This document shows positions 23,107 through 50,469 of a stretch of DNA of 64,000 nt, one piece after another. Under the pieces are notes generated by a model. It was not told where the DNA came from and made no database searches. It was given only the letters and a program-made list of their open reading frames with translations. This DNA is from Psammoneis japonica (taxonomy: Eukaryota): NCBI GenBank assembly GCA_008632985.1, contig QPGO01000042.1:62001-126000 (forward strand). The letters run 5' to 3'. Position 1 is the first letter of the stretch, and every line of letters starts with the position of its first letter. The position numbers and the translations under genes are program-made.

Positions 23107-24949
23107 TTACTTGAGAACTTTAAGCAACGCTTCAAATCCTGCATTGTGTTTCTCCCCACGTGACAATGTCCGAATTTTCTTCTTTTGCTTCCCGAGCTTC
23201 TTCTGCACTTCGCCTTGAACTGATTTGACCTGGAGAAGCGCTGTCAACACAAATGCTCCGCGACTAGTACTCCCTACGCCCATCAGGTTGTCACCAAATC
23301 GTCGTAAAAACTCACTGGCAAAAACTGACTCAGTTTCTTCTGAATCGGACAATAGTATACTTTTGATGGCTTTGTGGCCAACCGGGTCCTCAAATATTGA
23401 TAAGGTTCCTTCTTCTTCGTTGGCACCGTTCATCCCCTCTGTCTCACAAGCATCTAGCAAAGCATCTACAACTTCCCGGGAAGCAAACGAAGCATACACT
23501 TCACGCAGCACCCGCGAGCCTTCGATGGAGCGAGCAAGCTCGTTTGCGTGACGGACACACATGTCAATAAGAGGCTTTCTCATGTATTGAAGCAACTCCT
23601 GTCTCCTCGTTTCGGGATTCTTTTTGCTAGTCGGTACGCTTTCACCGGCTTCAATTACTTGTGGATTTGGCCCTAGCATTTCTCGTTCACACGGATCCAA
23701 ATACTTTTGTCGGGCTTCTTGCTTTGAAACCAAGAGCATAAGAAACAGCTTGGAGCCTGACTCATCAAGCGCAATATCCAAAAGAGATGACTTTTCATTT
23801 TCTTCTTCCTTGGGATTACTGAGAATTTCTGCAAAAACACTCTTGTTTACTGATACTGTATCGTCTGTGACCTGGACGATTCGAAGAACTGCCAGGTAAG
23901 CATCGCGATGCAAAAGGGATGATCTGGTGTACCCCTTCAAACTCTTCATTATTCGCTTTCGGTCTTTCGCTGTACCATACGAAGCGCATGCAACAACTAC
24001 ACGAGTTCCAGCTCGTGTCGACAGAAGATGGATTGAGTGATCCACAACATTAGGAGCGAGGGATCGAATTTCGTTCGGTGTCGCAACTGCAACGTACTCG
24101 GAGAATAGTTGCTGAAAGTAGACAAATCCGAAGAGACCTTTATCCATGCCTTTATTGATAATAGATAATACAAAGTCCATCGCCGAATCCTTCTTTTCGG
24201 GAAAGACTTCTAAATTGGATTCCAGCGTCGGATTGGAAGTTTTCAAGTCCGCAGAAGCGAAAAGTGTAAAGTGGGGCCCGTAGAACTCCTGTTTGAGAAG
24301 TGCCGTGGACTTTGAAGGGAAAGTAGAGAACAAGAGTTCCACTACTCGGGAGCCAACAGAATGAACAGCAAGTTTCGGGATGCTTCCCTTCAATGACTGC
24401 AGAACGCGATGTGAGCGATAATATCCAATGTGCCTTTGCACGATGCGTCGGGGCACTCACCTTGACGACGAGACGAACGCACTCCTCGTCGCGGTAACAG
24501 TACTTAATGATTTTCAACAAAAGAAAGTGAGCGTACTGTACTTTTGCCAGCTCTGCCAAATTGGCGGATGCGCACAACTCTTTCACTACCTCCTTTCTCT
24601 GATCCGTCGTTCCAAACTGTACTGCTGCTTGAACCACTCGACTCGCATCGTGCTGAAGAGCAATCTCGTTGACCTTTCCTCGAATAAGTGACATGAGCTC
24701 CTCCATGAGTTCACGAGTCTCTTCTGGAGTGTTGTTTTTCAGCCGAAGCTTGTTCCATATTTCCTTGCTTGCCATCACAGCATCCGCATGCTTTCGGTGC
24801 GACTGCCTCTCGTGCTTGAGAGCGCGTTTCTGACTCGTTGAAGATTGCGTATCATTTTTCAATTTCTTCTTTGACACAGGAGAGACCGATTTGCCCTCGA
24901 CTCCTTTGCGCTTGGCCGGAACACTCCTTTCTTTTTTTGCTTCGGCCAT
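23107..24949 (-). CDS. PUM3: Pumilio-repeat nucleolar protein PUF6/PUM3 (Puf-A, CPL domain)
   Basis: Basic N-terminus; LQHDASRVVQAAVQFG, YGTAKDRKRIMKSLK, VTDDTV, TSKKNPETRRQELL; one intron ~24460-24400. Confidence 0.9.
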
Positions 24950-25399
24950 CTTGAGATCGACTGTTGCTCCTTTTTTTTGTGCTTTTTAGTGTGTGGCTGT
25001 GTCGCTTGATTTGTGAGATTTGGGGGGTCGCGTTTGTTTCTTAGCGCGCGGGGGAAGCGGGAAGTCGCGCCGCATTCGAGCATTGACTGGTTCTCAGCTA
25101 CGGCACCCACTCGTACAGGACTCCTCGTACCTTACGACAGCGCATCCTGCCGCCGCCGCCTGGTGTCGCTTCAGTCATGCTTTCCAAGTCAGATTTTCTG
25201 TTTCTTCTTTGACCTTGTCTTCCCTTTTTCTTTCCCTTCCTTTTCTTTGTCATTTTTGCCCGCTGTGAGAGTTCCTTTTTTTTAGTGTGCCTCTCCTTGT
25301 CAAGAAATGACTCTCGCAGCTGAATTTCGTCGATGGCACTGTTTTTCCCTCAAAAAATGAAGCAGCAGAGGGAGTGTCCTTGCGACGTCGGTTTGACAG

Positions 25400-26480
25400 A
25401 CTTCACCCAGCTTGAAGGAATCATGCTTCAACCGAGGAAGTGGCTGCACATGTGTGGCTTTCTTGTGGATCTTGCTTGCCGTGCAGATCAAGCCCAAGCA
25501 ATTTTTTGCAATCCAAGAAAGATGTTGGACGCCACAAACTCGTGCACATGAAAACGTTGCTGACGAAAGCGCAGCTGCCCATCATCTGCAAATGTCAAAG
25601 AGTTCACATGTGGAAGAGCATCTGTGCTTTTTGCCCAAATCAAAACTGTCTCCGCCCCAAGCCACCCACATCACTTGGGGACACACCAAGGGCTGGGACA
25701 GAGTGTCGCAACAGCCGGCAGAAAGGGGTTGTTTTGCCGCAGTGTCAGCAGCACTGCCAAGGGCTGGCACACACATGAGCTTCCCAGCCCAAAGTTTTTG
25801 CAACAAGCAACCAAGCCTCAACTTGTTGAGCCATTGGCTGTCCCATGTTTTGCACACAACAGGCAACAGCACACACCTTTGTGCTGCAGCGCAACGTTGG
25901 TGGAGTCAGGACGGCTTTCAAGCTTGCCTCTGACATGGAGATCACTCTGGCATCATCAATGTGGACCTGAAAAAAGTGTCCATGATCATCATGGCCAAAG
26001 ACTCCAAACTGGGCTGCACTGCCCCACCCTCCTCCAACAAATGGCTGAAGTCACGCTGAGCTGCTGTGTGCTGCCACATGACTGTGTGATGCCACAGGGC
26101 ATTGTTGTTCTGGATGAGCCACACACAAGACTTGTCAGGGACCTGGTTTTAGCTGTGCAGTGCCATGCTGCATTGTTGATCTGGGCAAGCCTTTCAAGAC
26201 TTGTTGGGAACCTGTTTTTGACAGCTTGTTTTGCCCTGAGAGTTGCTGCATGGCTCTGCCAGCAGAGCGTTGATTGGATGACCCCAAGGACACCAAGCAT
26301 TCCCCCAGATGAGAGAGTGTGTTAAAATGGAGTTGATGACATAAACACATTCAGTCTGTGCATCTTCAGCACTGCACAGAAGAGATTTGTGGTGGGAGGT
26401 CAATGATGCTGGCAGCACTGTTTGAAGCCCAAAAAACCTGCCAAACTTGGCAGCCATGTGTGCACCAGAGGTGCCCAGGC
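25400..26480 (+). mobile_element. Possible relic of non-LTR retrotransposon 3' region (RNase H / Zn-knuckle)
   Basis: Only weak fragments (QLPIICKCQRVH, NVADESAAAH, CGPEKSVHDH, CWEPVFD), in an order resembling LINE RNase H-CCHC tails. Confidence 0.25.
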
Positions 26481-29299
26481 AGGGGGTGTGGCATGCTGCA
26501 AGCTGGGGACAGCTTTGGGAACAACACCAACCCATCAAGCCAGGCAGCAAGTGACATGGCATTTTTGACTGACATTGTCAGTTGTGCAACTCCACATGAT
26601 TTTTGGCAGTGCCATCAGAAGGAGGAGCAGTCACCACGCTTGTCCCAACAACCCAAGTTTCTGTGAATGAAAGAGTGCATGATGACCCCCCCCCCCCCTG
26701 TGCACCCAGCACTTGTGAGCACCTCCCAGGGATGCTTGGCTGTGGCTGGTGCTGTGGTGCCTTTTTGTGTTTTGGAGTTCCCACATGCCTTTGAGTGCCA
26801 TGTCAAGCTCAAGCACAGAAAAATTGGGCACTCTTCTTTTGGACACTCTTGGTGTGGTGAGAAGATGGCCAAGCTTGGGACCCCAGAGCCACATCATCAT
26901 TTGGGGATCATCAGAGGGTGCAATGTGGTGGTTTTCACTTTCCTTGATGCCCCAAAACAATGGTTGGTGTTTTTGTTGTTCTTTTGAATGCAACAAATGT
27001 CATCAAACATGCATTTAACAGTGCACTTTGTTTGTGTGTTTCTTCTGAAGTCTTGTCAATGTTTTTCATCAAAAAGCTTCAATCAAGAAATGCATCCAAT
27101 TTTTGTTTCAATTGGGGTTGGCACCTTTTTTGCAATGAATGGTTTAGTTTCTTTTTCATGGTCATCAACTGAGCTTGGTTTCAGCTTTGTCTTCCCCACT
27201 CACATGCATGTGTGTCCTTGCTTGTGTGCAGTCTACCTCAGGCACACACTTTCCCACTCTTGCTTCTTAAATTTTTCTTCATGCTTCCCACAGCCCGTCA
27301 GTCTGTGGTGTTTTCTGCATTTTTTCACATGCACAATTTTCTGCACACTTCATGACAGCACACCCTCTCCTCCCCAAACATCAAAAAGCATGAATGTGTG
27401 CTGTTGTGATTTACATGCATTCTGCGTGTTGTCGCAAATCTGCAACTCAACAACCTGCCATGGCGGTGAAAGACTTTGCCCCATGGGCCAATGACAGCAG
27501 CTCAATGCATCATGAGACCTGCTCCTGTCCTTCTGGTTGGTCAAGATGGGTTTTGATTGAGGTGTGTCTCTAAAGTTTTGTGGTTGCAAGAAGTGTGCTG
27601 TGACAAATCTGTCAAAGAACAATCACCCAGAATCTAGAATGACAAGCCAGCATGTCATTGCATGTGCACACATTGCAAACTTCTTTTCTGCACCATTGGT
27701 GCAATCATCATGCATGTCAGAGTTTTGCATCTAGAATCATTGCAAGTTGCCACAAATGACACAGTTCAAACAAGGCATGTGCAAAAAGAGGTTTGTTGGT
27801 TTTTGATGCTTCTCCAATTTTTTTGTGTCCAGATCCAGAAAGAATTCATCAGTGGCAGAGAGTGGTGGAGGCAACCGTTGGAGGTTGCCTGAGTTGTCAA
27901 GTTCATTTCTAAAGGCTTCCCTCCCAACAAGTCTCTCTGCTGTTTCTGGTCCATGCTCCAAATGTTTCATCAATGAACCATCCTTGGCACAGAAGGTGTG
28001 GGGCAAACACTTGACCCTCCTTGTGACTTGTCATTCGCACAGCTCTTTGTGCAGTGTGGCACACATGCAGGCAGTGCTTGTTCAAATGGCCATTCTGGCA
28101 AGGGCATTTTGTGGCACTTGAGATGTTTTTTTTTGCTTTCTTGTGTGCCATCTCAAGCATTTCAGTGTTTTTTTGGGGGGGTCAAAGGGGTGGAGGTGAG
28201 TGCTCAACATTGCACAGCAGTGCAAATGTTGCTCCGGAACAAGCAGTGCTGGATGCAAGGGTGAGTCTGTGTTGCCATTCCTTTTGGTCATGTTGGTTTA
28301 TCCATGTCACACTCTCACTGCATGTTCTGCACTTTTTGGCAATGAACAAGGTGGGTCAGAGCAACAGTGTGCTTCAAGAAAGATGACTGCAGCTGCTGTG
28401 ACAAGCTGGTGGGCACCAGAATTGGCAGCGGCAGCAGTGGACCCAACAGCAAGTCTGTGTCACTGTTTCTGTTGGTTGTGTTGGTTCATCTGCATTGCAT
28501 GTGCACTCACAATGTGTTCTGTGCATTTTGGCAATGAATTGCTTGAGTTCTGTGTCTGCTCACTTGTGTGGATCATTCTCTGGGGTGACTTGATGGGTGT
28601 CTCTCATCAAAAAGATGATTGGAGCTTGGAGGTTTTTTTTCTTGGCAGTGAGTGCCAACTCTTTGAGCTTGCCCATTTCATTTTTGGCCCCATTCCAAAT
28701 CTTGTGTTCCACCACTCTCTGCTTTGTTGGTGGTCGCATTGTGCAGTGAAACAGCTCTTGAGTTGCTCGCTTGTTGCACCAGTGGTGTTTTGGCTCCTGT
28801 TGTGGGCCAGTGTTCTTGCATCCTTACATTGCTAAAGCAAAGGTGTTTGGGTCATGCCTCAGGGCCTGCAGTGGTGAGTTTCAGTGCAGTCACCTGACCT
28901 CCATTGGTCAAATGCAAACAACAAAATAAAACAATGCAAATGCTTTTGATTTGCAGGTTTTGTGGGGATGGAGGGTGCACACACTCACAGGGAAAATGGG
29001 TGGCTGTTTCACAGTGAAACATGTTTTCCTCACAGGGGGGGGGTCAGACCCCCCACAGCATAAAAAATTTGTCTGATGGTCAACACATTGTCACCACATG
29101 CACAACACCAGTGTCCCATTGTGGCACTCATCTGTCACCCATGAAAAGGTCAAAAATCCCTGTGAGAAAGACACAACCTTGATCACTGCAACTCAGACTG
29201 TGATGATCATGTTGCAGCTGCCTTGCAGCATGGCTGGGACACAGGGCTTGAGTTGTGCACAGCAGATCTAGACATCTGGGCATCATGCAAGGCAACAAA

Positions 29300-30560
29300 G
29301 TCAGGCAGTGCTGAGCACCAGAGATGACACTTGCTTGTGTGAGCACACATGGATGAGACCTTGTGTGTGCCTCTTGTGACCCCACCCCTTTCACTTGTGA
29401 CCCAAAAGCAATCATGGATCATGTGTCTGCAAGTTGTGCACTTGAGAATGGAAGTGTCAAGGAGCTGGAGGAACACCTTGGTGTGCAGATCTGTGAGCAC
29501 AGCAGGCTGTTGGGCACAGATGGCAAGATGCACTGGGCAACATCTTCTGACTTGTGAGTCAATGGGGCATGAAACTGAGCTGATGATGAGTGCTGGAAGC
29601 TGCCTTGGAGTCAAAGCTCTGTGCATCTGAGCTCAGGACACTGACCTGAGTTGGATGGCTCACCTTGGTCAGACCAATCAGAGCAGGTTGATTGGCCACT
29701 TTCAAGCCTTGTGAGGTTGCTCTGCTGGACAGCAAAGCTTGGGAGGACTGACATTTTTGTGCCTGCATCAATGCTGGCATCTCACCTTGCAGCACCCCAA
29801 GTTCTTCAACACACCTTGCAGCACCCCAAGTTCTTCAACACACCTTGCAGCACACTGGTTCTTCAACACCCACCAGGTGAGGTGCTCCACATGTTGTTTG
29901 CCTGCTTGGGATCACACTCAAGCACAGTGTGTTTGACGAGACAATGCAAACCAACCAACCTTTGAGGAGAGGCAGGACCAGTGCATTTGCCAAGTGCGGC
30001 AGTGGGTTTGAATTTCACCTGGCGTGGAAGCACCAAATGTGCTGCACACACCAGAGATGCACACAGAGGCACACAGCACCATGCACTGTGCCAGCTGATG
30101 ACACACGCAAATGTGATCAGCATGTGTGGTGTGTCTGCATGAAAAGGGAAACAAGTCACATGTCTGTGGATTCAAACCCAAGATCTTGGTCATTCTTTGG
30201 TGACTTTGCTTTTGTGCGCACATTGCACATTCCACCCTGCAATGTGCTGCACTCTGTGAATCATGCTCAGTCTTGTGCTTTGTGAACACTGGTCATGCCA
30301 GATGATGTGTGTGGTGTGTGGGTCCCATGTGCTGGAGGTTCATTGTTTCATCACAATGTGCTTGACTGTTTTGAACTCCTCCAAATGGCAAGATGCTGTT
30401 GAGTTCTTCTCTGCATTTTACACCCAATTTTGTTGCACAATCAAGAGCTGTGCTGTGGGGCAGGTTGAAGCTCTGCAGCACAAGCTTGACTGGCATGCTT
30501 GGCATCCCTGTCAATGCACCCACAAACAATGTGTTTTGTGACAACAAAAACTGGGCCAGA
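29300..30560 (+). mobile_element. Decayed Ty1/copia (CoDi-like) pol: reverse transcriptase and RNase H relic
   Basis: Collinear motifs: HMDE at 29346 (=YVDD), DPKAIMD...GSVKELEEHLG, WATSSD, LCWTAKLGRTDI..ASMLASHLAAP, LHMLFACL, SKWQDAVE, VEALQHKL, GIPVNAPTNNVFCDN. Confidence 0.85.
29783..29868 (+). repeat. 29-bp tandem repeat, ~3 copies
   Basis: caccttgcagcaccccaagttcttcaaca x2 exact, plus a third diverged copy. Confidence 0.9.
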
Positions 30561-32264
30561 TCACAAGCAGCTGGCAAATTGTGCATGCTGCTTTCTTGGA
30601 TGTAAAAATTTGTTGGGTGCATCAAATGAGTTGATGCCTGCCTGGACAGAAGCTCCTGAAGAGTTGATTTGATGCATCTTTGTGAGTTGCATCCAAGTCC
30701 ATCTGAAAAGGAAGACAGGTTGAGCAGGTTTTTTTTTAATTGTCATTGTTTTCTTTTGCAATTTGAGGAAATGTGTCCCTCTGGTCATCCCCAGAATGGG
30801 GCAGCAATTGGGCTCCATTTTCATCTTGCCAAAGCCAGTGCATTGGCTCATGGGGACTGGACAAATGTGTGTGTGTGCTCACATGAAGGTGCAGTGCATG
30901 TGGTGTGTGTTGATTTCTCCAACCACATTTCATTGATGCCTCCATCTGTTGTGCCAACAGCTGTTCTGACCAGACTGGATGGGCCTGATGCTCTTGCAGC
31001 TGCAGAGCTTGTTGATTGCCATGCTGCATGAGCTGTTTGTTCCTTTGTCCATTTTCATTTTCAAAAACAATCACCCCCTGATGGCATTTTTTCTCACCAT
31101 GCATTGACCACATGAGGACAACTTTTGTGCTGACAATGCACTGCACTCACTGCAGCCATTCTAAGCTCATGTTTGCATTGAACAATGACAAGCTCTGTTT
31201 TCGAAGCAAGGCAATTGCTCCAACTTGGAAATCCTTTCAAGAACCAGCTCTCTGGCAAGTGAGCATGCTGGCAACATCTGCGCTGGATTGCTGAAAAAAT
31301 GGTGGAAAGATGTGGTGTGCACCACTGACCACTTGGTCAGGTTTTCAGCCTGACGCCACTGCAACAGAATCATGACTGCACAGGTGCTGGCTGCTCTTTT
31401 CACTCCATTGGCTTGGAGGGAACAATGTGTCACAAGGCATGCCGAGCCATCATCACAGCTGAGTTTGCAACAAACACCGGCCACCATTCCCTTTGCTGCT
31501 GCAGAATGATGATGGCTGCTGAGTGCCCAACAAAAGAGAGTCTGTTCTTCTGCAAGAAATTGCTGAGCCAGCTTTTGCTGTCTGCTTGCTTGAGCTGTCA
31601 TTCTGCACTGTTCCTCCTTCATCTGCATGCTGTTTGCTCTTGCTTGCAAAAAGTGTTTTGCTGCTGTGCTGCCAACTGAGGCAAATGAGTCACACACATT
31701 TCTGGGTTGCTTGTTCTTTGTGCGGCACAGATCAGAGACCAACAGGATGAGCAGTCTGTGCCTCCCCTCCTTGCTCACACAGGGTTTTTTCTCACGGGCT
31801 GCTTCCACGGGCTGTTGTGAAAGCAGCGCAGCACCCCGCAAGCACCCAGAACAACCTGCAGCAACCTTGCTCTTCCTCTTCATCAATGTCACATTGCACG
31901 TTGACAAGCAGAGAGCAAGTTTCACTTGCAGCCCATGCTGCCCTCGGAGCTCATTCTCTGGGTTCCCCACAGAAGCAAGCTCCTCATTGAGGTCTGGCTC
32001 TTTGTGGCTTGCACCACAACCAACCAGAGAGCTCTCCAGGGAAAGAACTGGCCATGAGAGAAGACAAGGTGTTGAGCAACAGAGGGCAATCATCAGGCAA
32101 TTGAGTTGCTTTCTGTTGTTGCATCCCAAGCCTTCAAACTCAAAATGCTTTGATGAAAAACATTGCTGCTGGCTCTCACAAATGTTCATTGGCCAACAAA
32201 GGTTCTTGCAAAAAAGCATCTGACAGAGCTGTTTGACAAGAACTTCTGGACATGCTGAGCAGTT

Positions 32265-35116
32265 GGACACTTGTCTTCAGAGTCTTTCAAGGGCAAGTCA
32301 CAACTCAGATTTTTTCAGGAAAGTCATCTCATTTTAAGATGTGCTTTCAAACCATTCACCAACCACTCTTTGTTTGCCACACCAATGGATTAGAGTGGAT
32401 TTTTTCACGCAGTTGAATGAAAGCAAAAAAAATTTGCCATGATGCAGGCATTGTCTCTTTGCCATTGTTGCAGAGGATGCACACTGATGAAACACTTCTC
32501 TTCTTTTGGAAATGACATTTGGAGCAGGGTGGTGTGTTTGAGAAACTCCAGCATTGAATCATGGGTGGGTGGGGGGCAAGTGGCAAAAAAATCCATGCAA
32601 GCTTCCATTTCTGCGTCAAAGCATGAGTGGCATGCATTGTTGTCCCTTGCATTGTCATGTGTTGCTCCCCACATTTCATGCAATCCCTTGGCATTGCATG
32701 CTCACCCATCATTTTCCATCTTTGCATTCACTCATTTGTCAGAATGGTGTTGCCATGCTGTGGCATTGCTTGTCACTCTGATTCAGACACCAACCAGCAC
32801 CAATGCTGGGGGAATTGTGAGGATGCACACCAACAACAAATCACTCTTGATTCTTGTTGAGGGGTGGCACAGATTTCTTGTCTGCAGTCCATTGCGCTTT
32901 AATTTGCCCAGTTGTTTGCTGCAGCACCTCAGTTGTGCACAATCACATGGGTTTTCAAGTGATGCTTGTGTTTGACCCCATTTTGATTTTGCCACTTGTT
33001 TGTTTTTGTTCTTTGTTCCAATTTTCTGGTTGCTGTGACAGACCCTCATTTTCATTTTCAACATTTTTGTTTCAAGCTGGTTGAGACCTTTGAGCAAGGA
33101 AATTCTCAGCAGCAACAGACTTGTTCTGAAATCATGATCACACCTGCTCCCAACAAAGAATCTGTTGCTGAATTGCTTTTGAAAACAGAGCATGAAGTCA
33201 ATGTTGTGAAAAAGGCAGCTCAATCATCATCCACTTCTTTGCCATTCTAAAGAGGTGACTTGGCACTGCCTTGGCTGGCTGCATTTTCTGGGAGGCTCTC
33301 CAGAACAAGAGCCACAGGCAGAAAGCAATTTCTGATGTCAGCAACAAGCTCTGTCATGAAACCCTCTCCAGCATCAGGAAGGACAACCTTGAAGCTGGAG
33401 CATCAACCAGGCAGTTGAAATGGTCAGCTCCAAGTCTTGGAGCTTGCTGCCACTGTCTGGATGGCATGTCCTGCCACCAAGACAGAAGCAAGCATGCCAG
33501 TGAGCTCTTCTGACAACATCAGAGGTTTGCAAACAAGCTTGTCCAGCTCCACAGGAGCCACCTGCAAAGGTTGACCACAAGAAGAAGTCCAAAAGGCTGA
33601 GCAAGAAGTCCAAGAGAAACCAGCCAAGAAGGGCTGGTGGAGTCTTGAAAGTGGTGGCAGCAATTCAAAAACTTTGTTGGGCACTGCTGGAGCCAACCAC
33701 AGGGGTGTCACTTTTTCCAATTCTGTGGTAGACACCAACCCTGTCTCTCTCTTCTGCCAGCCTCTCTTCAACTGATGGACACATGGGGGATTTGTCTCCA
33801 GAAAAACAGGGCTGGTGGACCAATTGTTTGGTTCAAAAAGGATCAGCTCCCATTTGGTTTTTTTCATTTGTTTTGCACTCAAACAGTCTCTTGTTTTCAC
33901 CATGCAACAATTGTTTCTCAAGCTGTGTCTCCATGAAGGGGCTGATGGAAAAATCAGCTCTGTCAATTTACACAAGTGCAACGCTGAAGGCAAACCAAGG
34001 GTGGCATGTGAGCTCATGTGTTGGAGACAGGCAGAGGTGGTTTTTGATGCATTCTGTGTGTGTGCCACTGTGTGCTCTGTTGCAACCAAGGAAATGTCCC
34101 ACTCAAAAGCACTTTTGTGTTCATTGTTCAAAGTGAGTGATTCCACAGTGAAAAAATCAAGTTTTCTGATGCACACAGTTGACCCACTGAGCCCAAGAAG
34201 CTTCCCTTTGTCTCCCCCCTTGCAGTGGCCCCAACAAACCCATTGCTTGCATCTGGGAGATCTTCCTGTTCCACAAAAAAGCAAACTTGCAGCAGAAAAG
34301 TTGCAAGAGGATTTTCTCACTGTCTTGGTTTTCTGGTCTTGCAATGGGCTGTGAGGGACACACCTTGTTTTGAAGGAACAAAAAACAGCATTGAAAGTGT
34401 TGCTGCTCTGCACATCACTGCATTCTCCAAGGTTCATGTGTGTCTCTGCAAAAACATGCACAGGATGTTGTGCTGTGAGGTGCACAAACAAAGAAACACT
34501 TTGAAAGAAGAAGCTTTGGCAGAGCTGCAAGCCCACATTTCTGTGCCCCAAGTCAGTCTTGCGCAACTCTGTTTTTGACCATGGCTGGCTCTGGCAGGTG
34601 TCCTTGTGTTGGCAGCAGCATCACTGCCCATTGTGCATGCTGACAAGCTGCAAAATGTTTGCTCTGTCTGACAAAAACTCCCAAGTTTCAAGTCCAAGCT
34701 TGAGCTCCAACACAAAAATGACACATGGGCTTGTTGATGGGAGCAGCACAGCTGCTGACAGGGGCAACCAAATGGCAGGCCATGGCTGCTCCTCCTGGGC
34801 CAAAGCTTTGCACATCACCCACCATTGATGTTTGCAGTGCCATCTGCGCCCATGGCAACTTCTCTTGATGGTGGGGGCGAGGCCATTTGCGAAGCTGTCA
34901 GATTGGCAGATTGCACAGCCCTGTTGTCACCACCAACTCAGATGGAAGAGCCTTCCAGATGGATCCCAAGAGAATTGCCATGCTCAGTTCCAACTTCACT
35001 GTTGAATCATGCGGACACTTGTCTCTTGTCTCCAGAGCAATTCAAGGGCATGTCACAGTTCAAATTTTTGCAGAAAAGTCATCTCATTTTGAGATGTGCT
35101 GTCAAACCATTCACCG
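32265..35116 (+). repeat. Dispersed ~100-bp direct repeat pair (~32265-32360 and ~35012-35116)
   Basis: Both read ggacacttgtct...ttcaagggca.gtcaca..tca.attttt..ag.aaagtcatctcatttt.agatgtgct.tcaaaccattcacc. Confidence 0.85.
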
Positions 35117-35756
35117 AACACTCAAGTTATCTTGCCATGTAGGTTCGCTGGCGACACCTCTCAACAACTTGTCATCAAAAGCTTTCTTAAGGCTTTGAAA
35201 CAAACAACATCCACCAACGCACACCACACTGTGGAGATTTTCTCGGGGATGGACATTTTGGTGACAGGAAACGTTTCTTTGACGACGCCTCCTCTGGTCC
35301 ACAATGCAGAGAGTGTGGGCCCTACTTAGGCCCCTCTGTTTCTTTCTCTAGAGGCTAGCTAGCGCTCACAATGTCAGACTGAAAGAATGTAACATATAAC
35401 ATTCCTCGCGCTCCTTGCACATAAAAAAGTTAAACGTCAACTTCTGGTTATAAATGTTAGCAAAGAAAGTTTGCTCGAACCTTGCCCTCAACTTCCATAA
35501 CCCACAGGGTCGTTGCGATAGCTTTGCCATAGTTGATGAAATGGGATGTTTCGTGATACGCTACAGGTCTTCCATGAGTCACAATCGCTCCAACGAAACC
35601 AGGGCGTAGCGAGCTTTCGACGTTGGATCGGGTACAACACAGTTTTTGAACCAGATGAACTGGGAGAGGCCAGCTCCTCAAGCTCCTTGCTCCCCACAAA
35701 TCGAAAGCCAAAATACTATCTTCTAACTTCAGCGCTGGAAACAACACTCAGAAAGA

Positions 35757-37063
35757 TCATCTGCTTGACTGCAATACTGGAGGTGAGTTGCCGCCATCGT
35801 TTTCCGTCACCTGAAGTTGCGACATTGTCAACCAAATAGAATTTTCGTCGTGATACTTCACAACTTTCTCCTCATCTTTCGTGAGCCACAAGTCACCCCA
35901 ATCCAACCCAGTGCGTTTGAGCTGCAATTCTGTGCTTTTGCAGAATTCAGGATCCCACTGAGCATGAAGTTTGCTTGTAAGCATTGGGGCTCTGAAAAAG
36001 GATGGTTTAGCTGCAACATGAATGCATTCTCGACCGAAAGACGAAGCTATTTGTCTAGGCAGGACTTTGTCAATTGGTTTCACAACGTAGCATCTCATGC
36101 GCTTTCCCTTCCATAGGATAGCTCCTACGTCGTTCCGAAGTGCGGCAAGCAGTTTCTCCAGTCCCTCCTTCGAAATCCAGTACGCGTATGCTCCCCAGAT
36201 TGGCTGGCCACCTGGTTTTTCGTGTGGTCCAGTAGATTTACCGGGTTTCTCTCCTGTCGCTTTTATCTTCTCCGTTCCTTCTTTTCCGTCAATCTCGATG
36301 TCAGCAGGGGTTGGGAATGGAAAGAACGAACTGATCTGGCGGTTTGCTGTTTCGTGCTTGCGCCGAGCAAATACGTCCAGAACCCATTTTATGTTTGGTA
36401 GAGAACCCAACCATCCATAGTAACGCAGATGACAGCTGCTCTTGTTTCGCACCTCCCACTCTTTACTTGCCGCTAACGTGGCCCAAAATCTCTCATAGCA
36501 TTCAGAACTAGAAGCGGGATCATCGGGATTCAGTAGCTTAATCGGAGCGCGGACGTTATCCTCCAGAATAAAGTCGAAACCTCCAGCCACACATTTCTTC
36601 ATTGCCAACAGATGCGCCAGTGTACAAGCAAGAAAGCACGACCACGGTTCACTGATTTCGCCTTCCTCCAGAGCTCAACGCTATAGTGCAATTTTACATC
36701 GAAGTCGCTGCCCTTTCTATTGGGAACAACAGACACGTCTTTCAGGCATTCAAAAAAACGATCGGGGTGATCTTGATACTCCTTCGTGCTTTGTCCTTGG
36801 ATGAGTGCGACCCATTCCTCGTGAGGCAACAAACCTGCACTGTTGACAATTCGAAAGAACTCCATTCTATTTCGCAATGAGCGTGATGGTATGCCCTCAC
36901 TAAAAACGGGAGATTCAAAATGACGAGCCAATTCAGGCTGAGAAAAGAGTTCCTCTATGTAAGACTGCCGTTCTGCGCCCATCGTAATCACCAGCGGCTT
37001 CAATCTTCGGGGTGAAGCTACCACATTGTCGTTCTCTACGACGGTCTCGACCTTTCGCATCAT
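35757..37063 (-). CDS. Glycosyltransferase family 25-like protein
   Basis: PLVITMGAERQ, FDFILEDNV, WGAYAYWISKEG, KPIDKVL; two ORFs joined by a frameshift near 36635. Confidence 0.55.
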
Positions 37064-37229
37064 AGCAAGTGACAACTGTGGTGGGCCTCGGGCACTAATC
37101 GAGAGGAGGAAAAGCGGAGGCGTGAAAAATGATCCAAAGGGGAAAAGAAAAGGTTTGCAACTTATTGCCAATAAGACGGCTGCCGCCATTTTGCTGCGCG
37201 CGGGTCGCGGTCGCGGGTTGCAGCATTAC

Positions 37230-40200
37230 CAGTGCGGACGAACTCCACATCCGCTCCATCCATCCATGCCATGCGATGCCATCCCGCAATCAATCAGAAT
37301 GTTCAGTGATGTCCCACTGCCTCAATGACCATGCTGCAACTCACAACGTGAATGACAGAGGAAAGGAAGGGGCCAGGGTGAGGCACAAAGACACGTGGCA
37401 GAGAGAGAAAGAGCAGTGTGCTCGCAGCAAGAGAGAGCAGCAGGAGGGAGAGCCCCCACAGGCACTCTGTCCCCTTTGTTGCTGACCTGCAATGCTGCCA
37501 GGGTGAGGAAGAAAATGGCAGAGGCAGCTGCAAGAAGAGCAGCAAAGAAGAAGAGAGAAATCTGGTGAAGAAGAAGAGGGGCTGCTCAGGAGCATGCTGA
37601 GGAGGATTTTGTGAGTGACAAAGATGCTTGGCGAGTGACGACTCTCTTGCTGTTGTGACAAGCACTTGTTTCTCTCTCTTTTGGCCCTGACATGAGTTCT
37701 GCACATGGCTTGTTGCTGTTCTTCCTGGATGCACTGGGCAAAAAAGCTACAAGAGTGTCAGAGAAGATGCTGACTCCAGCAAAAAGCTGAAAAGAAGAAA
37801 TGTCTGGACATCAGGCCTGACAGTGCAGATGGCATGGGCTTCCAAGAAGTTGTTCCCTGTGTTGTGGCTTTTGCCTCACCCATCAAAAAGAAAATTTTGC
37901 ATGGACAGAGCTGTGTTTTGCTTGTTTCTGGCTGTGAAAACTGCAAGGATGCACCCCCGCGGGAAGATGCCAGCTGAGTGCTTTGCTGTGCAAAAGACAG
38001 TGATGCCCGTCATGGCCATGCCAGGAAATGTGGTCATTGAGGATGCCGCTGACCCTGAAAGGCTCAAGGTTGCAGGCAATGCAGGCACAAGCAGGGAGGC
38101 AGCAGGGCACAAATGGGCAGTGGCAGAGAAGAGGATGGTCAGCAGAGGGCCCGGAGTGGCACCATGAGTTGGATGAGCACCAGAAAATGCAAGAGCACAA
38201 GAGACACATCAAGACAGGATGTCAAGATCACAGAAGACCATGCAGAGTGCTTGGGCCATGAAAAGGCATTTGAGATGACAGCAAGTGCAAAAAAGCCCAA
38301 GAACAAGAAGAGCACAAACAATGCATCATTTTGGACACAGGTCATCAACTTGAAAAAAATCAAGACCCACATGGCGACATTGACAAAATTTGTCAAGTGG
38401 CTTTGCCAGCATGACAGCCATGATGAGTGTGTGACAATGATGCAATGAACAAGCAAAAATTGGCACAACCAAAATGGTTTTTCTTTCCAACACAGCACAT
38501 GTCTTGTTGGCAAATGGGGAGCTCCCTTTCTTGCAAGAATTGCACACAGCATTTTTTGCAACAACACGTTCCAAATTGTGCCTTCTTGTGCTGAGCTCTT
38601 AAAAACATGCCATTTGAAACATGAGCCAACAGCAAAAAAGGCCATGCAATGTCTTGCACACCATTGCTCTGGGGTTGCTTTCAAACCATTAATGCCCTTG
38701 ACTCACTGGAGAGTTTTCAGTGCACCCATGTTGGCACACGTGTGCAGGAGGACACATGGCAGAGTTGCTGCCAGTGGTTTGAAGGGCTTGAGTGTGCAGA
38801 GCAGAAACTTCTGAAGTGACTTCTGATGTTGTTCTGGCCCAGATGGCAAATGGGTTTGCTTGAAAGAACCATCTGGGAGCACCAGCTGCAGTGCCCACAT
38901 GTGATGAGCATCTCCATTTTAAGCTCAATGGCTGCAACCACACTTGTGAATCAGACACCAAGAAAATGTGAAGCACTTTGCATGCTTGCCACATTTGGCC
39001 TGCCCCCTGCAAGAGAGTGCAGGATGGGGCACTGAGTCATGGGCAGGAGGACATGAAAAGCTTGTTCACCTGCAAGCAATGTGAGGTGCTGCACAGAGGT
39101 GCTGACAACTGGGCAACAAATGCTCACAAAACAAACCACACAATGACTTTTTGCACACCCTTTTTGAATCCCATTTTGTCTTTTTGTCCCTGGTGGCAAG
39201 AGGGTGAAAAAGTGAACTTTGGCAAGGGAGCACTCAATGCTTCATCAGGGAGGTTCTTGACAATGGGCCATCCAAAGAATGAAAGAAATGTTCAAGGGAG
39301 GAACAAGCAGCAGTGGAGTGAGAATTTTGCCTTTTTGTGCTGATCTGTTAAAAAAACACAATCTGAGACATGAGCTGACAGCAAGAGGGGCATGCACTGC
39401 CTTGTGCCATTGCTCTGGGACTTCAAGAAATCATTGATGCCCAATGTTGGAACACAGGAGGGCACAAGGAAGAGTTGCTGCCAGGAGGACACATGTGGAA
39501 GAGTTGCTGTTGCCAGTGGTCTGAAGAACTTGTGCGTGCAGAACAGAAACTTCTGAAGTGAGTTTTGATGTTGTTGTGGCCCATCTGGCCAATGGGCTTC
39601 CTTGAAAGGGCCCTCCTCTGGGAACAGCTGCTCAGCCTTTTCACACTGCTTTTGCTGCCCCCTGCTCATTTAAAGTTTGCCAGCACCACCCACATGTGAC
39701 AAGCATCTCCATTTTAAGCTCAGTGGCTGTAGCCACACCTGCCAGTCAGATGCCAGGAAAAGGTGAAGCAATTTGCATGCTTGCCACATGTGCCCTGTGA
39801 GAGTGCAGGGTGGGGTTCTGAGTCATGGGTTGCTGGGAAAACACGAAAAGCTTGTGCACCTGCAATCAACATGAGGTGCACAGAGGTGCTGACAACTGGG
39901 CAAAAAATGCTCACAAAAACAGCCACACAATGACTTTCTGCATGCCCTTGCCAAATCCTCTTTTGTCTTTTTGCCCCTGGTGAGAGGGTGAAAAAATGAA
40001 CTTTGGCAAGGGAGCACTCAAAGGCTTCATCAGGAGGGAGGTGACATTCTTGACAATGGGCTTGCCCATGAAATGAAAGAAATGTTCAAGGGAGGAGCAA
40101 GCAGCAGTGGACTGAGAAGAGCACATGCTCAAAATGGTCAAAGTTGGGTGATCACATTGAAGTGCTCCATTGCACCAATGAGTTTCAAAGTTGAAGCCAC

Positions 40201-42590
40201 ATGAAAGAAGAAACATTTTACAAACTTGTCGACACATTGCACAAGAGTGTCACTGTCAACCACACAACATCCAAGAACATGACTTGGGGGAAGTGCTCAA
40301 CATGTCATGCTGAGACATTGGTGTTGGCATGAGGGTGCAATTTCTTGGTGATGAGAGTTGTTCAAGTCTGTTGTGCAAACATGCATGAAATCCTCTGTTG
40401 CAAATTGGCAGAGAAAGTTGTCTTTTTGTTTTTGCATGTGTGGTGGGTGATTCTTCAGAACTGCACATCATCCTTCCAATTGGCACTTGGGCTGGACTGT
40501 CATGTTGTGGGTGCAGCTGACCAATGTGGCTGTGCTGTGCTAACACAACAAGCTTTTCGACATTCACAGTCCTGGCAATCACACCCCTTCTTCTTTGGAC
40601 ACTGTGAGAGGTGTGGGGCTGTTCAGGCTGTCTGCCCACAGCACCAGTCTTTGCTTTGTTGTGCTGAGGACAGTGGTGGGTTGCAGTGCCACTTTTTGGT
40701 TGGTTGGCGAGAATGAACACTCTGAGCAGTTTGATGCTCATTCCTGCAGCAGTGGTGCCAAAAAGCACAAACCCTGCAAGCAAAGCGGCTGCAGTCTGCC
40801 ACAACAACGCACTCACACAGTGATGTTTTTGCAGATGGGCAGCAGCCATTTGGCACAACTTTTGCTGGAGCCTTGACTGCTCTGTGGATCTTTGCTCTCT
40901 CACTGCTCATTGTGCAGCAGCTTTGCAAGGCTTTGTTGTTAACAATGAAATCTCAAAATCATTGGTGATGACAACTTTGAGTCTCTTGAGTTCAAGCAAC
41001 TTGTGGGCAGCCCCAGGCCCAATGGCAATCAGGGGCTCCTTTTCTTGTCCCTCCTCTTCTCATCAAGCAAACAAGGAGAAATGCACATTTCATGGAAATG
41101 ATGCCTTCTGCAGATTGTGAGTTGGGGCAATGTGCCCCCCCCCCCAACAATCTGGGGCACAACATGGAGGTGTGCTGGGTGAGGAGAGATGGAGAGATGG
41201 TGCACACAACCCCAATGATGAGAATGTGGATGCAGCAGCAGTTGGCACAGCTTGGCCATTTTAGAAAATGTGCAGCACCACAACTCTGTTTTTTGAGTGC
41301 CTGCCTTGCTTTGGCCACATTTGGGTTGAGTGGCACATTGCAGTGCACCCAACCAACAACAAGCTCTTGCTGGCTTGCCAGCTCCCTGCTCCTGTTGTGC
41401 ACAGCTGCATTTTGCTGATGCCCTTTTAACCCAGCCCACTTTTGACATCTGCTCATCAAGGCAGAGATGGGGCTTTTGAGATTTCTTGCTCTCAGCGCAA
41501 CAGCCTCCCCACTTCAAGAAAGTCCTCAAGATTGCCAGCCCCTGCCGCTAACTGCGTGCCTCTCAAGAGTTTTCTTGCCCTTGAGAAACCTGCAACACAC
41601 CACACTTTGGCTGATTTTTTCTTCTGCTGTTGATGTGCTCTTTGGCCAGTGTTTTCCACAAGCCATGCCTGCAAGCAAGTGCTGCTCTTCATGCATCACA
41701 ACCCTGTTGGCTGGTGCTCAGTCATCATTGCCTCCATGCTCATGGCTTCATTCTTGGAATGTTGAACATCACCAAACAGTGCATTGATTGAGTGCACCCC
41801 CTGCCTCTTGGCTGACAGCTGCCTGCCAACCTCTCTCTCTTTTTTGCACTTTGTGGCTTTCCCTGGACCCTGGACGCCAAGAGCCCCCCGCCTGCTTTTT
41901 CCACTGCAGTCAGCTTTGTTGAAAGCAACCACACTCTCAAACACATCTTCTTTCTTGAGTTTGTGCATGTTGGCAAAAAACACATCCAACAACCTGATGC
42001 AAAAGAGAAATGGGCTGGCACAGCTGTCACACACAAGGGAGGATTTTTTGTGTCTTGCGCCGCGGCACCCCTTGGGGCAGATTGCTGGTGAGAATGTGCA
42101 AGGTGCTGCAGATGATGTGGTGCATTCTTTTTGGACAGCTCTGCTGGATTGTTGTTGATGGATGTGCTTTGTTTGGGTCAGCAGGCTGCAGGTTGGCTCT
42201 TGCCGCAGAGCTCGCTTCTTGTGCACCCCTCCCACCCGTCTGTCAGCCCCGGCGGCTGCAGCTTGTTCTGTGGTGCCATGGCTCCTCCTGACCAGCACCA
42301 CTGCATGCCACGCATGATGCAGGAGACGTGCCTTCTAGAGATCCAGTGCTGTAAACCACTGTGGCACGTCATTGAGGTGATGGTGATCCTCTGAGACGGT
42401 GGCATGGAATCACAAGGGACATTCGATCTTCGGATGTGCCAGTCAAAACGTGCAGGAATGCGGAATTTCCAATGTTTCGGATGCATGCCGTGCACACACG
42501 CACGCACATTGAACATTCAAGCACTGGCACATCAAACATCAGCCATCAGCCATCAGCCATCATCAGCACATCAACACGACAACATTCAAC
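37230..42590. repeat. CpG- and TpA-depleted degenerate repeat block 2
   Basis: Same TG/CA-rich composition as block 1, no intact gene, contains a ~770-bp tandem duplication. Confidence 0.9.
38575..40117 (+). repeat. Diverged tandem duplication, unit ~750-790 bp
   Basis: Shared words, e.g. gcatctccattttaagctca (~38909/~39702), gcacagaggtgctgacaactgggcaa (~39091/~39878), gttcaagggagga.caagcagcagtgga (~39290/~40084). Confidence 0.9.
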
Positions 42591-42685
42591 CCTAGGGCAC
42601 TATACTGGCGTTAAGACCTCGGCTTCATATATCTTCTCGACTTTAAAGCGTCATTACGACAGTGAATTTCAGCTATTATAAAACG

Positions 42686-44972: not shown

Positions 44973-45089
44973 CTTTTCTTTCGGGAAAGCTAACAAAAAC
45001 TACGGTAAGACAGCACGCGGTAACATCACCAATAAAAATAAGCCAGGCAGTGGACCCAGTCCGAAACAATGAAGTCAGCAGGTAAAAAG

Positions 45090-47290
45090 GCAAGTGACGA
45101 GCGTCCGTCCGCCTGTGGGCATTCTCGTGATTGCTGCTTGCTGCGATCCCCAAAATCTCGCCTCGACTGAGGCTCTCTGCTGGCCGCTCCTCTCTTTCTT
45201 TGACCTGGTCTGTCAAAATTCCAATGCGTGCTGGTGTTGCCACCCAGACTTGACTTGGAGTTCTTTCATGCATGCATGATGAAGGATTTGCCCAAGGCTG
45301 CCCCCTTGGCCCTGCCTTTGCTGCCAGCCTGGTCTCATCAACATCCTGCAAGCTGCCTCAGCACCCCTGTCCTTCCTTCCTGCCTTGTTGGCATGCCTTG
45401 CCATTGTGGCCATGCCACCCTGCCTTGATGCCTGTGTTGACCATGCCTTCCAATGCCAGTGCAACCTTGGCTGTGACATTGCCCATCACCTTTCCTCCCA
45501 TGCTTTGCAGCTTTTCTCTTCTCTCTGTGCTGGGTCCTCTCCCCCCCACCCCCTCTGCCAAGCTCCCCACAAGCTGCGTCACGTGCTTTTTCTGCTTGTT
45601 TGCCTTGATGGCCTCCTCCATGCCTGTCTCTGCTGCACCCCCCCCCCCCCATCCTTCTCAACAGGAGGCTCTTTAACTCTTTGCTGAGTTTTCAAAAATT
45701 GTTGTGGCTGCTTGTTTCACTCCATCATTTTTCATCAAACCTGCGCCACACAACATTTTTGCAGGGCCACAGGTCTTTTCAATCAACTCATCTTCATGCT
45801 CCATTTCCCACTTTGGTGCTTGAATTGTCCCCAAGATGGGAATGGAAAATGGAAAAAAATGGCTCACAAGTTGGACAGCCCTGCATTGGCTTGCCCCCAA
45901 ACTTTTTACAACAGATGAAAGGCTCAAAAACTGGGTGAAAATGCCCCAATGGCTGTGCACTGCTGTTGATGGCAGCTGGATTTCAGTGCTCAAAACTTGG
46001 GAGAAGATGCCCCTGCTTGACAGCCATGTGTTGCAACTCCTGTGGCTGCAGCTGTTGAACCACAAACAAAGAGAGTGACTGGTGGATGTGCCAGTGTCAT
46101 CTTTTTCTCCATTGTTCTTTGCCCAATTGTCTGTGTCATGAACTTCCACAGCAAGAAACAATGGGTCATCAGGGTTGGGCAACAAGACTCAGTTGATGCA
46201 AAATGTGGTGCTTTTGTTGGGTGTTGGATGCACACACTGTCTTGTGTGCCACCATCTTTGCCTCTTTGCTCTCTTTGTGCAGAGCACAACCAGGCCAAAG
46301 ACCTTTTGCATGCTCATCAGCATCTGGCTGGTCAGCATCACAGCCTCCTTGTCCTTCGGCCCTTTGCTGCCAGGATCTCTTGCTCAACACCAGCTCTTTC
46401 AAAGTTGTGTTTCTCCAGCTTTTTGCAAAGGCCCACAACCCAGTGCTGGCTGTGCCTCCAGACATTTGGGCAAGTGCCGTCAGCACCTGTGGAGCACACA
46501 GCAGACAGGTGGTGAGCAAGAGGGAAAAAAGTGTGGCGCGCAACAGGTGGAGGGGCCAGTGTCTCCTCCCAACCACACACACAGTCATCAGGAAGCAAGG
46601 GTGCATGGAAGCAGGCACAAGAAGGGTGTGAAAGAGAGGCGGCTCTCAGTTTCAGATCCAGCCCCCAGCAGAGTCACTGACTCAGAGAAGAGCAGCCAGG
46701 CACAAGAGCTTCTGTGGTTGAGGGGGCACTTTTTCTTCTTGTCTGAAGCAAGCCAAGGCAATGTCAGCAGAGGAGGAACAAATGGGGACTCAAAAGGCAG
46801 GCATTTGGAGAGGGCCAATGGTCTGAAGGACAGGAGCAAAGAAAAAGCATTGTGGACGATTGCACACTGGAAAGGGGGCACGCTGCATTTGAGGCCTGGG
46901 GATGGAGAATCGCAGTGGCGGCTCTGTCTGTGCTGTAGTAGACTACAGTGCGATGATTTGTCCTTGGCCAAATGGCCGTCATCTCTGTGTGCTCTGCAGG
47001 GCATCGGTGTCTCTACTCAACTGTAGTGAGCAGAGCACACTGTACTGTCCAGCCAGCCACGCCGCGCCGCGCCATGCATTTTGCCCTTCGTCTGTCACTG
47101 CCACCACCAGAGGACGACGGACAAGCCCGCCGCGCCGCAAGAGCGAAAAGTAAGTAAGATGCCGGAGTGTGAGTCAGCACGCCACAACATGATGACACGG
47201 CAGCGTCGATGTCTTCATGATGTGAGTGCATTAGTTCTCTCTGAAGAGGTGAAGGCAGCGCGAGACGTAAACGAGAAAACGTGAACAAAG
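45090..47290. repeat. CpG- and TpA-depleted degenerate block 3
   Basis: Same composition; core 45240-46850 has very few CG or TA; origin not recognisable. Confidence 0.85.
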
Positions 47291-50278: not shown

Positions 50279-50469
50279 GCGAAAGAGCGATTGTGTTTGC
50301 CTCGGGCATTTTGTTTGCCTCGGGCATTTTGTTTTACTTGTATGTGTGTATGCATGTCTGTAGCGTTTAATTTGAATCGATCGAAGAGATCAAAAATCAA
50401 AAAGCAACGATGCCGATTGCCGATGCACAATGATGGCGGAAGCGGGAAACTGAAAACATACCGCAGAGC

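Follow-up and report, generated by a model that had tools for sequence, protein, structure and literature searches.

A degenerate Copia-type element in Psammoneis japonica

The DNA analysed here (the window) is a 64,000-nucleotide stretch of contig QPGO01000042.1 (positions 62,001 to 126,000, forward strand) from the Psammoneis japonica assembly GCA_008632985.1. At positions 29205–30572 of the window (+ strand) lies what its sequence identifies as a dead, 5'-truncated and frameshifted pol fragment of the Ty1/Copia type, comprising the reverse transcriptase (RT) thumb and RNase H. It is embedded in an island in which the dinucleotides TA and CG have nearly vanished and TG and CA are in excess. 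Comparison with related proteins reveals that its codons have changed from TA and CG to TG or CA, with about equal use of the two strands.

A translation in the frame of position 29225, with X at stops, matched P0001, a 654-aa protein containing PF07727 (RVT_2), with an E-value of 1.1e-9 in a search of 5.8 billion proteins. A scan of 1.84 billion representatives, made with no word index, gave 57 proteins at E<1e-3 and none below 1e-10, with identities of 26–43%. One relative of the relic, P0006, scores 69.7 bits on RVT_2, and BLASTP of the thumb/connection part of the relic against P0001 gives 70.9 bits. RVT_2 was not found by Pfam in the six frames of 25401–35000 (E<=1) or in the three forward frames of 29223–30601 (E<=10). 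This is as expected of a hypermutated and frameshifted relic, and indicates low sensitivity rather than absence. All 155 tblastn hits (E<=0.01) of 177 relatives fall within 29100–30700. The pieces are collinear with the relatives by both BLASTP and tblastn, and those of RNase H follow those of RT.

The RT palm part (29205–29369, +), detected by collinear tblastn in the frame of 29346, reads ADLDIW...HMDE, where the family has ADPDVW...YVDD. The thumb/connection part (29399–29953, +), recovered by tblastn of the first 59 relatives, is one frame off the palm part. It includes the motifs DPKAIMD and ELGRxDI, with YLG altered to HLG, GYRPELD to GH*PELD, LRW to LCW, PR to PQ and FAYL to FACL. Inserted inside the relic are three copies of a 29-bp unit (29783–29869, +; Tandem Repeats Finder, 93% matches), which disturb the BLAST alignment with P0001. 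A weak RNase H start, CFVNTGHA (family C[YF]VDADHA), is present at 30246–30299 (+), with five low-scoring matches that are collinear with RT and weak alone. RNase H continues at 30368–30487 (+), where SKWQ, the STFGSEF region and LQHKL in place of LRYKL are collinear by BLASTP and tblastn. It ends at 30495–30572 (+) with MLGIPVNAPTNNVFCDNKN (family MMGIPxxGPT.VFCDNxS; ten collinear tblastn matches).

Integrase, gag and upstream RT were not found with 11 relatives of 622–1865 aa or with all 177 relatives. Self-comparison of the window, including in a purine/pyrimidine alphabet, gave no pair of long terminal repeats (LTRs) and no LTR-like direct repeat. This suggests a truncated relic and not a whole element. 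Purine/pyrimidine self-BLAST detected no unmutated copy in the window; in this alphabet the identity of known repeats rose, and rows beyond the top five were noise. The relic appears to be old, as judged from its frameshifts and from 45 mismatches with the family which the changes described below leave unexplained.

The preliminary description of this DNA had proposed, from Copia consensus motifs, that each alignable Tyr or CGN-encoded Arg codon of the relic was changed in the direction expected from TA or CG. The quoted codons are in place (CAC ATG GAT GAG at 29346, CAC at 29474, TGC at 29723, TGC at 29903, TGG at 30386 and CAG CAC at 30476). For five of the six motifs, the residue assumed to be ancestral is that of the family, as counted in the 172 relatives that are not themselves Tyr-less. 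Tyr is present in YVDD in 149 of 157 relatives (His in 5 of 157), in YLG in 164 of 168 and in FAYL in 136 of 155. Arg is present in LRW in 150 of 169; in LRYKL, 85 of 95 relatives carry the Arg and 84 of 93 the Tyr. The sixth change, SKRQ to SKWQ, is only plausible and is left undecided by the family, where SKxQ carries Arg in 45, Lys in 42 and Trp in 1 of 100. His and Cys are rare at these sites, and the relatives do not therefore already carry the residues of the relic. Destruction of the RT catalytic motif was also correctly described: HMDE (29346–29357) retains the position of YVDD, but would have lost its chemistry. The second Asp of YVDD is present in 145 of 155 relatives.

The same trend is seen when codons are counted without reference to motifs. 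Consensus columns were defined as those in which at least four relatives aligned to a relic codon and at least 50% agreed, giving 170 columns between 29205 and 30549 from 59 relatives. Tyr is kept in none of its 13 columns, which now read CAC (seven), TGT (one), TGA, TGG, GAG and CTT (two). Arg is kept in one of seven, as the CG-free codon AGG; the others are TGA, TGC, CAA, TGG, CAG and TCA. Residues besides Tyr and Arg are kept in 92 of 150 columns. Tyr was thus preferentially replaced, as had been predicted (0/13 kept versus 93/157 for all remaining residues; Fisher p 1.8e-5).

A mismatch was considered explained if any codon for the consensus residue could yield the present codon through TA>TG, TA>CA, CG>TG and CG>CA only, codon borders included. 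This model explains 32 of the 77 mismatches; permutation of labels explained a mean of 9.5 (SD 2.7, maximum 19), and none of 2000 permutations reached 32. The inferred events comprise 12 TA>TG, 10 TA>CA, seven CG>TG and six CG>CA. Changes in the CpG direction include CGA>TGA, CGC>TGC, CGA>CAA, CCG>CTG and GCG>GTG. Residues other than Tyr and Arg are also affected, with Pro>Leu (CCG>CTG), Ala>Val (GCG>GTG), Lys>Glu after T, Ile>Val (T|ATA>T|GTG), Val>Ala (GTA>GCA) and Leu>Ser (TTA>TCA).

These comparisons bear on the possibility that the composition is native, the sequence avoiding CpG and UpA like many RNA viruses and retroelements and never having been mutated. The available part of PMC3829696 describes cytoplasmic RNA and RNA viruses as being under selection against CpG and UpA. 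However, the changes in the relic destroy the protein: they produce HMDE, they convert CGA to TGA, and stop codons occur in all frames, at about one per 38 codons. In addition, the relatives carry Tyr and Arg at these sites, and the observed/expected (o/e) ratio of 0.04 for TA (see below) is far below those of viruses. A native composition is refuted in practice and can be given virtually no weight.

Islands depleted of TA and CG

Over the whole window, the o/e ratio of TA is 0.45. In 2-kb steps, the regions 26–34 kb and 38–42 kb have ratios of 0.03–0.09 for TA, 0.04–0.13 for CG and 1.6–2.2 for TG and CA. Counts in 500-bp steps reveal three sharp-edged islands, with ratios of 0.04 for TA, 0.09 for CG and 1.89 for CpA. 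Relative to the window outside them, the islands are lower by 52.0 CG and 36.4 TA per kb and higher by 52.4 TG and 38.8 CA per kb. Mononucleotide content is nearly unchanged, with GC approximately 0.48 in the islands versus 0.49 in the rest. Gaps of at least 180 bp between successive sites number 32 for TA (28 in islands) and 29 for CG (all in islands), against 0–4 for each of five control dinucleotides.

Site gaps, lists of edge sites and the 500-bp counts define the boundaries. Island 1, which contains the relic, is TA-free over 25283–35128 (9.8 kb) and CG-free over 26054–34847. The corresponding zones are 37227–42593 (5.4 kb) and 37423–41875 in island 2, and 45083–46936 (1.9 kb) and 45227–46857 in island 3. 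At each of the six edges the CG-free zone stops short of the TA-free one, by 79 to 771 bp, and so lies nested within it. Between the two boundaries CG is retained and TA is not: 25170–25912 contains 22 CG and one TA, and 42058–42590 contains 21 CG and two TA. No Pfam families were found in six frames of all three islands, which are flanked by genes of normal composition (PUF/CPL, SET and PhyH).

The island sequence is reproduced by other data. Contigs assembled independently from k-mers of run X1 match island 1 with few differences and at 60–66x, like the flanking genes; run X1 is possibly the source sample, making this check only partly independent. Contig record 5 has no differences from the window over 29007–29812. 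The k-mer depth over the relic is 65–83, also like that of flanking genes, and run X1 therefore contains no further copy at least 90% alike. An artefact of sequencing or assembly, in which modified bases were miscalled as transitions, has been considered, since strand-specific miscalls of a symmetric mark would be expected to give TG or CA at random at each site. It is of negligible probability, as the X1 contigs give the same letters at normal depth, with the reservation just stated, and the same signature occurs in metagenome contigs (L039 and L040, described below) and in proteins from other assemblies.

The X1 contigs differ from window positions 24001–36000 at 17 single letters. Five of these are TA or CG versus TG or CA (26986, 30217, 30745, 31281 and 34845), which may be allelic or strain variation and are too few to use.

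Repeats in the islands provide evidence for change in place. Self-comparison reveals a tandem duplicate in island 2 (38574–40118, +; copies 38574–39324 and 39323–40118), whose copies differ 12 times by TG versus CA at the same dinucleotide, the next commonest class of double difference numbering four. Identity between the copies is higher in the purine/pyrimidine alphabet. Differences of TG versus CA are expected if each copy independently resolved an ancestral TA or CG.

This bears on the alternative that the element was edited during its retrotransposition cycle, its RNA or cDNA having undergone ADAR- or APOBEC-like deamination prior to insertion. Animals are known to contain hypermutated copies of retroelements; there, the deaminases APOBEC3 and ADAR act on RNA or single-stranded cDNA ahead of integration, and the resulting hypermutation is strand-asymmetric. 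In the islands, both strands are changed alike and the DNA is altered in place. The strands are hit equally at TA, as the preliminary description had maintained (12 TA>TG versus 10 TA>CA in the relic; 15 versus 18 in L040), the TA-free zones extend over 9.8, 5.4 and 1.9 kb whereas Copia homology is confined to 29100–30700, and the two tandem copies, once duplicated, took different outcomes at the same sites. ADAR enzymes do favour U before the edited A (10.64898/2026.01.13.699255, in the Discussion, from the part of the text available). Even so, editing before integration is very improbable.

Part of island 1 behaves differently in depth. At 27201–28000 the X1 k-mer depth is 1600–2000, versus approximately 60 in neighbouring sequence, so that this part belongs to a high-copy dispersed family. 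TA and CG are a little commoner in it than elsewhere in the island (seven TA and six CG in 850 bp), and no shared differences from the window are listed for it in run X1. A 99-bp dispersed repeat (32270–32368 and 35025–35123) is 86% identical, or 94% in the purine/pyrimidine alphabet. It was considered as a possible pair of mutated and unmutated copies, and was dropped since both copies lie within the TA-free zone of island 1.

Two open reading frames (ORFs) of 398 and 369 aa are present in island 1, at 33424–34620 (−) and 31167–32276 (−). Neither has a Pfam family, and no Atlas relative was found for the former (low recognition, 842). They are probably a by-product of TA loss, since DNA free of TA cannot contain TAA or TAG. 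ORFs of this kind may be entered as proteins by gene-calling software, the Tyr-less database entries described below being examples. Between islands 1 and 2, at 35757–37225 (−), there are two overlapping ORFs (305 and 208 aa) whose composition is normal and in which no Pfam family was found; they represent an unannotated gene that has stayed intact between two hypermutated islands.

The flanks are compact and intron-poor, with long unbroken ORFs and genes on both strands. They encode a CCT chaperonin subunit, seryl-tRNA synthetase and a Cid1-type poly(A) polymerase, as well as the SET, PhyH and PUF/CPL proteins. At 50434–51974 (+), two overlapping ORFs together encode an adenosine-deaminase (editase) domain, PF02137 (profile positions 1–62 and 61–205), and no other domain. 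By its domain content this gene is ADAT1-like, and would belong to the enzyme class that has been discussed for TpA editing. Its location, approximately 3.5 kb from island 3, is probably a coincidence.

TpA loss in related Copia elements

Amongst the 177 relatives, five ORFs are themselves Tyr-less (P0011, P0019, P0027, P0028 and P0092). At 18 conserved Tyr columns of the 177-sequence alignment, these keep 0/14, 1/11, 0/6, 1/6 and 1/13, and the replacements are 20 His and 20 Cys. The five retain 74–86% of the remaining conserved columns. Arg is kept in 10/14, 6/7, 0/1, 4/4 and 6/14. In the remaining 172 relatives the median fraction of Tyr kept is 0.89, with a minimum of 0.45.

Metagenome contigs were scanned with an alignment of this clade, yielding 80 loci with TA ratios (o/e) of 0.13–1.08 and CG ratios of 0.03–1.06. 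A separate scan with P0011 as query found no relative. Some of the 80 loci are poor in TA only, as are L040 (TA 0.13, CG 0.58) and L039 (0.16, 0.77). L040 and L039 represent the same element, being 99.87% identical, on contigs whose name prefixes differ. Conversely, four Copia copies of the same clade (L006, L007, L008 and L049) are poor in CG only, with CG at 0.03–0.08 and TA at 0.55–0.64.

The ancestral state of L040 was taken as that on which at least two of L003, L027, L054, L031, L065 and L029 (approximately 90% DNA identity) were unanimous. Of 42 ancestral TA, eight are kept, 18 have become CA and 15 TG, while 64 of 74 ancestral CG are kept. Four control copies keep TA at 21/24, 19/19, 18/19 and 18/22. 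Transitions per base in L040 amount to 0.419 at TA, 0.057 at CG and 0.015 elsewhere, so that TA changes at approximately 28 times the rate elsewhere. Most of what looks like change at other dinucleotides is these events counted again in overlapping pairs. There are no clear runs in the order of CA and TG along L040. Only two of 17 TA sites after C are changed in L040, a pattern that the residual TA sites of the window lack.

A polarized count was possible for 39 loci with enough close relatives. Heavy TA loss is also seen in L042 (25/44 kept) and in L051 and L053 (5/16 and 5/17 kept), and partial loss in L032, L050 and L052; most other tested loci keep more than 90%. A sharp edge is present in L039 at approximately 2273, with nine TA up to base 2272 and 15 in the final 247 bases. 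In L040, positions 1–1500 lie upstream of the TA-free part and have a strand-asymmetric composition, unlike the symmetric pattern downstream. In this region TG (56–67 per 500 bp) greatly exceeds CA (34–39), and CG is low (9–13).

The TpA process can thus occur without the CpG process. The four CG-poor copies mirror L040, which suggests that the two processes take place apart from each other, in distinct hosts or at distinct times. The evidence indicates that loss of TpA is separable from CpG decay, is faster and spreads slightly further. The direction and dinucleotide specificity put forward in the preliminary description hold against real relatives, both in the mismatches of the relic and in the DNA comparison of L040, and with the strand symmetry they stand. 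The two mutations are separable processes rather than one.

Origin of the islands and comparison with known systems

The direction of change, its dinucleotide specificity, the equal use of strands and the sharp island edges are all observed. They are likely to reflect two transition processes that acted on DNA in place, on both strands and near to completion, with the relic lying in 9.8 kb of foreign or repeat DNA that has been silenced. One process would convert TpA to TpG or CpA; the other would convert CpG to TpG or CpA in the same islands. The outcome would be an irreversible inactivation, the relic losing every Tyr codon, CGA turning into a stop and YVDD into HMDE.

A TpA-directed process has recently been described in Bigelowiella natans (Mettrop et al., bioRxiv 10.64898/2026.01.13.699255). 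According to the available part of this preprint, two regions of integrated viral DNA received 231 of the 302 new nuclear point mutations in mutation-accumulation lines. A>G and T>C made up 230 of the 231, all at TpA by the authors' account. The rate was approximately 1000 times that of the genome, with mutations in some lines only, and reverse transcriptase and DDE domains were over-represented in coding sequences poor in TpA. A DNA adenine deaminase resembling ADAT2 is proposed, and the process is read as defence. The available text makes no mention of CpG, introns, diatoms or other species.

The islands resemble the B. natans regions in that A>G or T>C at TpA gives TpG and CpA and is confined to islands beside normal genes. 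By analogy, the TpA process is probably of that type, a hypermutation targeted to foreign DNA. It could involve adenine deamination at TpA, as those authors propose; modification of thymine at TpA, if mutagenic, would be an equally good fit. The CpG process may consist of methylated cytosines being deaminated within this silenced chromatin, with a slightly smaller spread. There are also differences from the available account of B. natans. Here a Copia relic is at saturation, with a TA ratio of 0.04, in contrast to a Rho of 0.45 in the region derived from a nucleocytoplasmic large DNA virus. CpG is also lost here, in a slightly smaller zone, and in L040 is largely kept (64/74). Introns are few in the window and its ORFs are long and unbroken, as would not be expected of B. 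natans. The role in genome defence that the preliminary description assigned to the process would agree with the B. natans mutation-accumulation data on TpA hypermutation of foreign DNA.

A passive by-product of heterochromatin is a further alternative. CpG would carry 5-methylcytosine (5mC) and TpA a modified T or A, for instance 5-hydroxymethyluracil (5hmU), as symmetric marks that are slowly mutagenic, with no dedicated mutator. Both targets are palindromic pyrimidine–purine steps and could be maintained on both strands, the fate of each site looks random, as in L040 with its lack of clear runs, and the relic is apparently old. In dinoflagellates, 5hmU prefers TA and TC, is enriched on repeats, overlaps 5mC and is linked to transposon silencing (PMC11572971, available part). 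The preference for TA and the place on repeats are a likeness to the islands, and a mutagenic modification of T would give the same T>C outcome. However, that text reports no mutational outcome, and the window, which is compact with genes on both strands, is not dinoflagellate-like. The rates also argue against slow decay. TA loss reaches 80–100% in the Tyr-less relatives and L040, where other conserved columns are 74–86% kept and CG is mostly kept, and the TA transition rate in L040 is approximately 28 times that at other bases. The B. natans process, as far as the preprint is available, is episodic, at approximately 1000 times the genome rate. A passive origin is therefore rather unlikely.

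Other hypermutation systems share some of these features. Repeat-induced point mutation (RIP), known from Neurospora and other fungi, is likewise a transition hypermutation of both strands that irreversibly inactivates transposons in sharply bounded islands. In RIP, C changes to T mostly at CpA, creating TpA and lowering GC (PMC2621366, available part), whereas here TpA is destroyed (0.04), CpA rises to 1.89 and GC is unchanged. In addition, the relic is at single-copy k-mer depth, giving no sign of dependence on repeats. Decay of methylated CpG, as in vertebrates, plants and the transposons of basidiomycetes, gives CpG>TpG or CpA on both strands in silenced DNA, and is matched alone by L006, L007, L008 and L049. 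TpA, however, is untouched by that process.

Several observations weigh against targeted hypermutation by two processes, or limit how far it accounts for the relic. Of the 77 mismatches, 45 fall outside the model and represent ordinary decay. Five of the 13 Tyr columns are not plain His or Cys codons (TGA, TGG, GAG and two CTT), and the change of Asp to Glu in HMDE is not amongst those predicted. A mirror control (AT or GC to AC or GT) explains nine mismatches (permutation mean 3.6; 11 of 2000 reach nine), so that the signal is in part a mild general excess of transitions. In the tandem duplicate of island 2, 12 TG/CA differences compare with approximately 32 roughly expected if all change had followed duplication; the mutation process probably spanned the duplication event. 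Finally, a C>T component at CpG is present in the window (0.09), and the B. natans type of process has no such component. The CpG half is thus without precedent in that study, the available text of which does not mention CpG.

The kind of process is already in print, in the 2026 preprint (10.64898/2026.01.13.699255). New here are a retrotransposon as target, the saturated end state (TA ratio of 0.04), the nested loss of CpG, the separability of the two losses, the metagenome cases and the Tyr-less ORF as a marker. A search of the literature found nothing on TpA loss in transposons, and returned the B. natans preprint on TpA. By term search, neither of two papers on diatoms (PMC2806351 and 10.1101/2025.10.24.684338) mentions hypermutation or the loss of dinucleotides.

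It was not until 2026 that a TpA-specific mutator acting on DNA was reported, from one alga and for integrated viruses. The same signature on a retrotransposon in P. japonica and on several metagenome relatives suggests that the process is probably more widespread. A bolder suggestion, which we offer tentatively and regard as possible rather than probable, is that TpA editing of foreign DNA is a widespread defence of microbial eukaryotes. It would act first and fast on newly silenced retrotransposons and viruses, with CpG loss following or, in some lineages, joined to it through a dual A/C deaminase or a shared chromatin target. If so, both palindromic pyrimidine–purine steps would be erased, and Tyr-less ORFs would be a ready marker for the hosts and the enzyme. 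A screen for ORFs that are Tyr-less but otherwise conserved finds further cases in protein databases (5/177 here), and such cases provide material for finding the enzyme and its targeting signal.

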